A DNA stretch of 64,000 nucleotides from NCBI RefSeq assembly GCF_013167455.1, contig NZ_CP038328.1. One strand, written 5' to 3'. Shown piece after piece: positions 59,946 through 60,975 of this stretch; the stretch's first letter is position 1; the number at the start of each line of letters is the position of its first letter. This DNA comes from Escherichia coli O157:H7 (GTDB taxonomy: Bacteria; Pseudomonadota; Gammaproteobacteria; Enterobacterales; Enterobacteriaceae). The notes under the pieces are model-generated. The model was not told the origin of the DNA, searched no databases, and saw nothing but the letters and a program-made list of their open reading frames with translations. Both the position numbers and the translations under genes were made by a program.

Positions 59946-60824
59946 TCAAATTTTTCCACTCACCACTAGTTGTTCCGTACACATTTGTAGTAAAAACAGT
60001 GGACTGCCTTCTACCGGCTTTTCTTTAGCCAGCAACGAAATCTGTCGATAGAAGGTTGGTTCGAGAGGAACGGAACACAATTCATCTGCAATGGTTTTCA
60101 GCGTTAACTCTGGTAATAAGGCGATGCCTAATCCCTGTCGAATAAAACTGATCGCTGTATCCGGGTGATTAAATTCATATTTTATCTGTGGGGTAATATT
60201 CTTTTCTTTAAATAGTGCCATAATGCTTAATTCATAGCGTCCTTTACTAATGATTAATGGTTCACCCATTAATTCTTCCACTGTAATAGTGCTGTTTTTT
60301 GCCAGAGCATGGTTGGGCGGTAACACTACGGTGAATTTATCCTGATAAATGGGCACGGAGTACATTCCGCTCACCGGAAAATGAACAAAACCGGCATCAA
60401 TGGATTCATTCTGAAGCGAATCAATAATCGCTGTGCTATTTTCCTCAAAAGGAATAATTTTTATATTCGGATGATGAATTTCAAAGTAGCGAATCACAAC
60501 CGGTAAGATACAGGCGCAGACGCTGGGGAAACAACCAAGTCTCAGCGTTCTTTGAGGGTTCTGCTTTTCCTGCTCGGCTATCTCTTTTACTGCGTTAACT
60601 TCCCGATTAATGGCGCGCAGATGTTGCACAATGCGGTGACCTGCTGTGGTCAGTTGTATAGCTTTACGGCGATCGCGTAACAGTATATTCACACCAAGTT
60701 CTTGTTCGAGGGCAGCAATTGCCTGACTTACCGCCGACTGCGTCATGAACAATCGCTTGCTGGCTTCAGTAAAGCCACCGTAATCCAGCACGGCGAGTAA
60801 AGAATTTATTTGGGTAAGAGTCAT
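59946..60824 (-). CDS. LysR-family transcriptional regulator
   Basis: 292-aa ORF with LysR HTH (GGFTEASKRLFMTQSAVSQAIAALE) and substrate-binding domain; divergent from MFS gene. Confidence 0.85.
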   Translation of the reverse strand: MTLTQINSLLAVLDYGGFTEASKRLFMTQSAVSQAIAALEQELGVNILLRDRRKAIQLTTAGHRIVQHLRAINREVNAVKEIAEQEKQNPQRTLRLGCFPSVCACILPVVIRYFEIHHPNIKIIPFEENSTAIIDSLQNESIDAGFVHFPVSGMYSVPIYQDKFTVVLPPNHALAKNSTITVEELMGEPLIISKGRYELSIMALFKEKNITPQIKYEFNHPDTAISFIRQGLGIALLPELTLKTIADELCSVPLEPTFYRQISLLAKEKPVEGSPLFLLQMCTEQLVVSGKI

Positions 60825-60975
60825 TAGAGTTTGCTAATCAATAATATTAAAACGATTAATTTCTCTAATAGCATGCCGCCATTTATACTTCTGTTCTGCA
60901 AAGTACATCACAATTTGACGCAACCGCAGTAACGGGAGTGTTGTCTGCGTGCGTCATCCTGACAGGCGGTAGAGT

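Follow-up and report, generated by a model that had tools for sequence, protein, structure and literature searches.

According to a footprinting survey of LysR-type regulators (PMC5002191), it is the norm of this family that the regulator gene is divergent from the gene it regulates. The operators described there include that of GcvA, where the 15-bp dyad ATTAG-n5-CTAAT is found twice, at -65 and at -43 of gcvB, and that of OxyR, with three dyads ATAG-n7-CTAT at -66, -44 and -35 in the oxyR-oxyS region (PMC5002191). In the occR-occQ region of Agrobacterium five half-sites make up the inverted repeats (IR) IR1 (-64), IR2 and IR3 (-33) of OccR, and in response to the inducer OccR shifts between IR3 and IR2 (PMC5002191). 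For PcaQ of Sinorhizobium a 16-bp site ATA-n10-TAT centred at -65.5 has been dissected experimentally (PMC5002191). Here we compare with these systems a palindrome, ATTAG-N6-CTAAT, which is located at the start codon of a LysR-type regulator gene of Escherichia coli O157:H7. The stretch of DNA analyzed, referred to as the window, covers 64,000 nucleotides (NCBI RefSeq assembly GCF_013167455.1, contig NZ_CP038328.1).

Based on the sequence comparisons described below, the palindrome is probably IR1, the recognition site distal to the promoter, in an ordinary operator to which the adjacent LysR-type regulator Z3495 would bind (probability of roughly 0.7). An earlier reading of the window, made from the letters alone and here called the sequence-only reading, had proposed a T-N11-A-type dyad typical of LysR boxes and a plausible autoregulatory site. 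This proposal was partly supported by our analysis. It was right in substance, since a regulatory and plausibly autoregulatory LysR site is indicated, but imprecise regarding the T-N11-A type, the extent of the operator and the primary role of the site.

The regulator gene (59946-60824, minus strand, RefSeq) encodes a protein of 292 amino acids (aa) with matches to the Pfam domains HTH_1 (residues 3-63) and LysR_substrate. On the plus strand its ATG appears as CAT (60822-60824), a start that is also used in the RefSeq annotation of identical genomes. The divergent gene (60976-62166, plus strand), the presumed regulated target, encodes a YfcJ/YhhS-like MFS transporter of 396 aa (Pfam MFS_1, E = 3e-60). 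Through the work of Wang et al. 2024 (PMC10819331) the two could be identified as Z3495 and Z3494, respectively, both belonging to O-island 97. The intergenic region between them is 151 bp long and has a GC content of 41%, that of the window being 51%.

The window reads gtCATTAGAGTTTGCTAATc at 60821-60840. Therein the sequence ATTAGagtttgCTAAT at 60823-60838 overlaps the LysR ATG by 2 nt. It consists of perfect 5-bp arms, ATTAG (60823-27) and CTAAT (60834-38), which are separated by a 6-bp spacer (ATTAGAGTTTGCTAAT). The palindrome was thus present as described before, and its position at the LysR start-codon edge of the divergent LysR/MFS region was borne out as well. The exact pattern ATTAG-N6-CTAAT is expected 0.04 times in the window, and further copies with one mismatch occurred in the window at chance level only. 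However, palindromy alone is no evidence, because the 64-kb window contains 88 perfect 5+N6+5 palindromes of any sequence and three dyads with 5-bp arms lie within the 151-bp intergenic region alone; with spacers of 0-12 bp approximately 1,040 perfect palindromes are found in the window.

With 16 bp the dyad is longer than the canonical 15-bp T-N11-A box. Its axis falls between two bases, and therefore the symmetric T/A pairs are T-N10-A and T-N12-A; T-N11-A pairs are found off-axis only and the canonical core is absent. The part of the sequence-only reading which saw a LysR box here remains the best reading of the site, whereas the strict assignment to the T-N11-A type does not hold for this dyad. 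The true T-N11-A dyads are its neighbours.

The palindrome is not a stand-alone site but one third of a presumed operator, the outermost of three dyads in a conserved block of 47 bp (60823-60869). The block carries five half-sites of the type ATTA(G/A)/(C/T)TAAT: H1 ATTAG (60823-27), H2 CTAAT (60834-38), H3 ATTAA (from 60846), H4 ATTAAT (from 60855), which is palindromic and can be read in both directions, and H5 CTAAT (60865-69). From H1 to H5 the half-site starts are successively 11, 12, 9 and 10 bp apart. H1 and H2 form IR1 (ATTAG-N6-CTAAT, 16 bp, 60823-60838, centre 60830.5). H3 together with H4 in reverse forms IR2 (ATTAA-N5-TTAAT, 60846-60860, centre 60853; ATTAAaacgaTTAAT), and H4 together with H5 forms IR3 (ATTAA-N5-CTAAT, 60855-60869, centre 60862; ATTAAtttctCTAAT). 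Both IR2 and IR3 are 15-bp dyads of the T-N11-A type. Apart from them the window contains no match to ATTAR-N5-YTAAT (expected 0.21; at least two matches in 0 of 100 shuffles). The dyad centres are 22.5 bp (IR1-IR2) and 9 bp (IR2-IR3) apart, a spacing typical of the family, and both distances are free of any assumption about the start site.

To lift the dyad above chance, conservation and not palindromy is decisive. The sequence-only reading had named a lack of conservation in orthologous loci as the result that would speak against it. We aligned 18 sequences and calculated the information content over 12 non-redundant enterobacterial lineages, with LysR identities down to 59-61%; two loci were fetched after the alignment and compared by eye. 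The divergent LysR/MFS pairing was present in every orthologous locus examined. There was no gap from the LysR ATG to about 60883 in the 18 aligned sequences, and none was seen by eye in the two added loci. Within this constant frame conserved boxes alternated with free spacers. High values were obtained for TAG of H1 (60825-27, 1.65 bits), CTAAT of H2 (60834-38, 1.87 bits), ATTAAA including H3 (60846-51, 1.93 bits), ATTAATTT including H4 (60855-62, 1.90 bits) and CTAAT of H5 (60865-69, 1.83 bits). The IR1 spacer (60828-33) reached 0.80 bits and the 7 bp following H2 (60839-45) 0.79 bits, and the sampled third-codon positions of the LysR gene (60813, 60816 and 60819) were at about 0.39 bits. 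The low scores of spacer and third-codon positions argue against the conservation being an artefact of too-close relatedness.

The eight columns of the IR1 arms outside the ATG had a mean of 1.79 bits, compared to 1.02 bits for the whole intergenic region, and this mean was reached by only 0.018% of random 8-column draws (p about 2e-4). When the IR1 template was slid across the region, the contrast of arms minus spacer ranked first among 138 placements. ATTAG was intact in 16 of the 18 aligned sequences, the exceptions being Leminorella (ATAAT) and Pluralibacter (ATAAG). CTAAT was intact in 14 of 18, with CTACT in three and CTTAT in one. In a distant homologue (LysR 41% and MFS 74% identical) this position is occupied by ATTAT-aaaaat-ATAAT, in which the inner base of each arm has changed and the symmetry is kept. 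The LysR protein of this homologue has the same recognition-helix sequence TQSAVSQAI, and ATTAATTT, CTTAT, 14 bp and TAGCAT follow the dyad in the same arrangement. Because the dyad is conserved in orthologous loci with a free spacer and fixed spacing, a regulatory LysR site is the best reading. That the dyad might be a functionless chance palindrome in AT-rich intergenic DNA, for which the abundance of such palindromes in the window and the intergenic region could be quoted, is extremely improbable given that its arms and not its spacer are conserved down to 59-61% LysR identity, that the spacing is fixed and that the contrast ranked first of 138.

A comparison of the region within E. coli contained too little variation to be informative, since only two allele classes were found. 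At 60800-60900 the identity to the window is 95% or higher in about 1,120 genomes and 80-90% in 102 genomes. The latter class (e.g. E. coli O145 RM12367-C1) has an intergenic region of 164 bp which is closer to the Salmonella sequence. The two classes could reflect an old polymorphism or recombination.

Since the dyad reaches into the start codon, it might alternatively act in the LysR mRNA as a hairpin that encloses the start codon and tunes the translation of a gene without Shine-Dalgarno sequence. The arms would indeed pair in the mRNA, the 3' arm including the AU of the AUG, no Shine-Dalgarno sequence precedes the ATG, and the ATTAT/ATAAT variant of the distant homologue keeps the pairing (one compensated change). 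On the other hand, a stability of only -1.2 to -1.4 kcal/mol is predicted for the hairpin (z = -0.57), which 49 of 200 shuffles equalled or surpassed. The variant would consist of five A-U pairs, in four lineages a pair is lost and not compensated, the LysR transcript would have to start upstream of the dyad, and the equally conserved IR2 and IR3 would be left without explanation. We rejected the hairpin on its energy (-1.4 kcal/mol, z = -0.57) and regard it as highly improbable. Regarding the gene start itself, no Shine-Dalgarno sequence was recognisable upstream of the LysR gene (minus strand, 60825-60845: …GATTAGCAAACTCTAATG). Its expected place is the 6-bp spacer of IR1, which is free to vary in all orthologues, and the TAG of half-site H2 forms an in-frame stop directly upstream of the LysR ATG.

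The position of the operator relative to the MFS gene is indicated by a conserved -10 hexamer. In the window TATACT is located at 60884-60889 on the plus strand, from which a transcription start near 60896-60897, about 7 nt downstream, can be predicted. A hexamer TANNNT follows 14 bp after H5 in nearly all lineages (TATACT, TATAAT, TAGAAT, TAAAAT, TATTAT or TAGGCT); in Pseudocitrobacter the distance is 15 bp, and Pluralibacter has only a weak TACTCT. In a position weight matrix (PWM) scan the promoter with this -10 was the best or second-best on the plus strand in 12 of 12 lineages. The putative -35 (60861-60866, plus strand) lies inside H4/H5 at a spacer of 17 bp and is weak, with TTCTCT in the window and TTTACT in half of the lineages. 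Because of this weak -35 a consensus scan for promoters and terminators of 59800-62300 found no MFS promoter, and it gave nothing in the intergenic region. A weak -35 is as expected of an activator-dependent promoter. With a start near 60896-7, IR1, IR2 and IR3 would be centred at about -66, -44 and -35, and IR3 overlaps the -35 region. Because IR1 is placed at about -66 as judged from the conserved -10, we consider the dyad first as a recognition site for the control of the MFS gene, which is probably its primary role.

For the LysR gene a promoter was more difficult to place. A weak candidate -10 is TATTAT at 60841-60846 on the minus strand, the top hit of this strand in 5 of 12 lineages in the PWM scan and displaced by 3 bp in a sixth. 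Within it, column 60845 shows poor conservation. A leaderless LysR mRNA with a -10 in the IR1 spacer was rejected, as the alignment shows no conserved TANNNT there. Readings of the region as a binding site of IHF (WATCAANNNNTTR) or CRP (TGTGA-N6-TCACA) were rejected by eye on the alignment, the needed bases being missing or not conserved.

The conserved boxes might alternatively be core promoter elements, either an UP element or -35 of the MFS promoter or the -10 and -35 of a LysR promoter, and the palindromy of 60823-38 incidental. UP elements can be formed by A/T-rich tracts between -40 and -60. The putative MFS -35 is situated inside H4/H5, and about half of the lineages have minus-strand hexamers resembling a -10 at 60841-46 or close to it. 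However, IR1 would lie near -66 to -74, beyond the range of an UP element, and the candidates on the minus strand fall into the poorly conserved 7-bp spacer and not into the conserved boxes. Promoter elements would need no dyad symmetry. Here one 5-bp word is found five times in alternating orientation, and the 41%-identical homologue has changed both arms symmetrically. We therefore judge the boxes unlikely to be core promoter elements only, and prefer the reading as a LysR operator.

A second conserved element was observed about 10-25 bp downstream of the predicted MFS start. It reads A-TCACA-(A/T)4-G/C-ACGC (60906-60921, with ATCACA at 60907-60912). Its TCACA is nearly invariant in the 18 sequences, and in Citrobacter a 56-bp insertion parts it from the operator. 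Neither a partner half-site convincing for CRP nor a reading as promoter was found for this element.

The arrangement of the operator suggests how it might function. One DNA-binding dimer of a Z3495 tetramer would be anchored on IR1 as the high-affinity recognition site. With the second dimer on IR3 the weak -35 of the MFS promoter would be covered. With the second dimer on IR2, one helical turn closer, the -35 would be free, and RNA polymerase could be contacted or recruited, leading to activation of z3494. A co-inducer would switch between the IR3 and the IR2 state, which corresponds to the classical sliding-dimer scheme. Occupancy of the operator may also lower the transcription of the LysR gene. 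No part of the operator is more than 46 bp upstream of the LysR ATG, and therefore the LysR promoter should either overlap the operator or lie upstream of it, so that occupancy should repress LysR. As the LysR promoter could not be located, this autoregulation is an additional, positional argument.

Architecture and predicted positions resemble the described systems closely. With OxyR the locus shares three dyads with nearly the same centre distances, 22 and 9 bp there and 22.5 and 9 bp here, and the predicted positions match. It differs in the half-site sequence and in the length of IR1 (16 bp here), and OxyR is switched by oxidation and not by a small-molecule ligand. As in OccR, five half-sites are present of which the fourth is common to IR2 and IR3; the sliding-dimer scheme of OccR, in which the inducer shifts one dimer between IR3 and IR2, would apply to Z3495 by analogy, whereas sequence and host are different. 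PcaQ provides an even 16-bp recognition site at the position predicted for IR1, although its half-site sequence and regulated pathway are unrelated.

The closest likeness in sequence is to GcvA. The same half-site words ATTAG/CTAAT are used, regulator and presumed target are divergent, IR1 is predicted near -65 and IR2 near -43/-44, and the site overlaps the control region of the regulator itself. In K-12 the gcvA-gcvB IR1, read directly, is ATTAG-ttttt-TTAAT and is centred 65 bp before the gcvB start. Unlike GcvA, IR1 has a 6-bp spacer (16 bp in total) instead of 5 bp, a third dyad has a predicted position of about -35, and the presumed target is an MFS gene and not a small RNA. The only departure from the known architecture is the strictly conserved extra base of IR1, for which PcaQ sets a precedent. 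The regulator itself is not GcvA (74 bits compared to a cut-off of 288; 28% identity between the proteins).

Several observations weigh against the proposed operator of Z3495. IR1 is 1 bp wider than IR2, IR3 and the canonical 15-bp box, and two of its ten arm bases are already fixed by the start codon. In four lineages one arm has one or two mismatches without a compensating change. The positions relative to the MFS start depend on a start predicted from the conserved -10 only, and the PWM scan gave no consistent LysR promoter in the 12 lineages, so that autoregulation stands on position. The half-sites are identical to the published GcvA consensus, and another LysR-type protein could thus bind. 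The published table of Z3495 peaks from chromatin immunoprecipitation sequencing (ChIP-seq; PMC10819331, Supplementary Table S4) contains no peak at this locus. Finally, the rcsF promoter, the only published direct target of Z3495, has no operator-like dyad within two mismatches in the 117-bp upstream region of the K-12 copy.

The last two points have to be seen in the context of the published work. Wang et al. 2024 reported that deletion of z3495 lowers the expression of the enterocyte effacement locus (LEE), adherence and colonisation of mice, whereas deletion of z3494 was without such a phenotype (PMC10819331). Z3495 fused to maltose-binding protein (MBP-Z3495) shifted the rcsF promoter, and ChIP-seq gave 97 peaks (PMC10819331). 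No binding motif was derived, and the z3494-z3495 intergenic region was outside the tests of that study (PMC10819331). The peaks of Table S4 have log2 enrichments of 1.2-1.8 and lie mostly over highly expressed genes, i.e. those of ribosomal proteins, ompA, pflB, groL and rRNA; none is labelled rcsF (PMC10819331). Furthermore, the coordinates fit a genome of K-12 size, with glpA at 2.35 Mb and the highest coordinate at 4.47 Mb, while the locus described here is near 3.13-3.17 Mb in several O157 assemblies. The peaks were apparently mapped to a K-12-like genome, in which the native z3494-z3495 region would be invisible. Because K-12 lacks the region, the table neither supports nor refutes binding at this locus. 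Our reading predicts that the published link to rcsF is indirect or mediated by a very different site.

The identity of the half-sites to the GcvA consensus raises the question whether the conserved block is bound mainly by another protein, such as GcvA, another LysR paralogue or a nucleoid protein preferring AT-rich DNA. In addition to the consensus, the half-sites match the K-12 gcvA-gcvB IR1, and IR3 agrees with the GcvA regulon site ATTAG-n5-CTAAT in 9 of the 10 arm bases; moreover, the operator has a very high AT content. Against this, the block co-occurs with the LysR/MFS pair, and its distance to each of the two genes is fixed across all lineages. A foreign binder such as GcvA is disfavoured by this positional coupling. 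Divergent pairing with the regulated gene is the norm of the family, Z3495 is not the GcvA orthologue, and the IR1 spacer of N6 instead of N5 does not fit the GcvA site. Discrete conserved 5-bp boxes with free spacers are unlike the trace of a non-specific AT-binding protein. We consider another main binder quite unlikely and retain Z3495 as the presumed binding protein. A further idea arises because the operator uses exactly the half-site words of GcvA: Z3495 and GcvA may recognise each other's sites, with the conserved N6 of IR1 insulating or tuning the cross-talk, and the virulence effects in enterohaemorrhagic E. coli (EHEC) might then be exerted via targets of the GcvA/GcvB type and not via rcsF. 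This we regard as speculative and very unlikely.

The distribution of the locus was analyzed as well. In the window, which shares 100% identity with chromosomes of the E. coli O157 type, the order of genes is glpT, glpQ, a 368-aa hypothetical gene, LysR, MFS, inaA, yfaE and nrdB. Of 5,426 complete E. coli genomes, 1,212 carry the LysR/MFS pair in full. Approximately 3,100 E. coli genomes including K-12 have only a remnant, in which the final 243 nt of LysR (the yfaH pseudogene) are left together with about 105 nt from the 3' end of the MFS gene. Z3495 is the full-length form of this yfaH remnant, and NCBIfam PRK09729 (YfaH) matches its residues 226-292. LysR orthologues with 59-96% identity were found in other Escherichia species, E. 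albertii, Salmonella, Citrobacter, Scandinavium, Klebsiella sp., Kluyvera, Pluralibacter, Pseudocitrobacter and Leminorella. In the orthologous loci the LysR gene is mostly located between yfaE/nrdB and glpQ/glpT. The chromosomal position is the same in Salmonella, Citrobacter, Pluralibacter and E. albertii, and partial synteny was seen in several other genera. Searches of the literature gave nothing on the function of yfaH and no papers on Salmonella STM2280/STM2281.

The sequence-only reading had called the LysR gene accessory. Its accessory character within E. coli results solely from the deletion, which about three quarters of the genomes carry; across the Enterobacteriaceae the pair is syntenic. 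O-island 97 (z3494-z3495) has been described as laterally acquired (PMC10819331). Since synteny is shared across genera and K-12 keeps truncated 3' ends of both genes, the sequence comparison suggests instead that it is an ancestral enterobacterial locus which was deleted in K-12-like E. coli and lost in many members of the species, and not a horizontally acquired island.

Some further observations were made on the locus. The LysR gene of strain 23CRST050 (L005 547-1425) contains an internal stop and carries a pseudogene annotation, but both the MFS gene and the operator are undamaged; this strain offers a natural regulator-null background. The 3.5-kb contig JAIJJM010000334.1, from a metagenome-assembled genome labelled 'Collinsella sp.' (an actinobacterium), encodes a LysR protein 99% identical to that of E. 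coli, and its intergenic region is identical. Mis-binning of an E. coli contig is almost certain here. The 368-aa ORF between glpQ and the LysR gene (58412-59518, minus strand) lies within a segment of 31-34% GC (58200-59800) and carries the annotation hypothetical (WP_001301786.1). K-12 and the divergent O145 allele lack it, it is frameshifted in the strains CB7453 and 23CRST050, and it gave no match in Pfam, NCBIfam or PADLOC. The ORF looks like a separate foreign insertion.

Taken as a whole, the locus is a textbook LysR-type arrangement, and no general concept of the family is changed by it. For the published EHEC virulence regulator Z3495, the operator provides a candidate recognition motif, ATTA(G/A)-N5/6-(C/T)TAAT, and a predicted primary target, the MFS gene.

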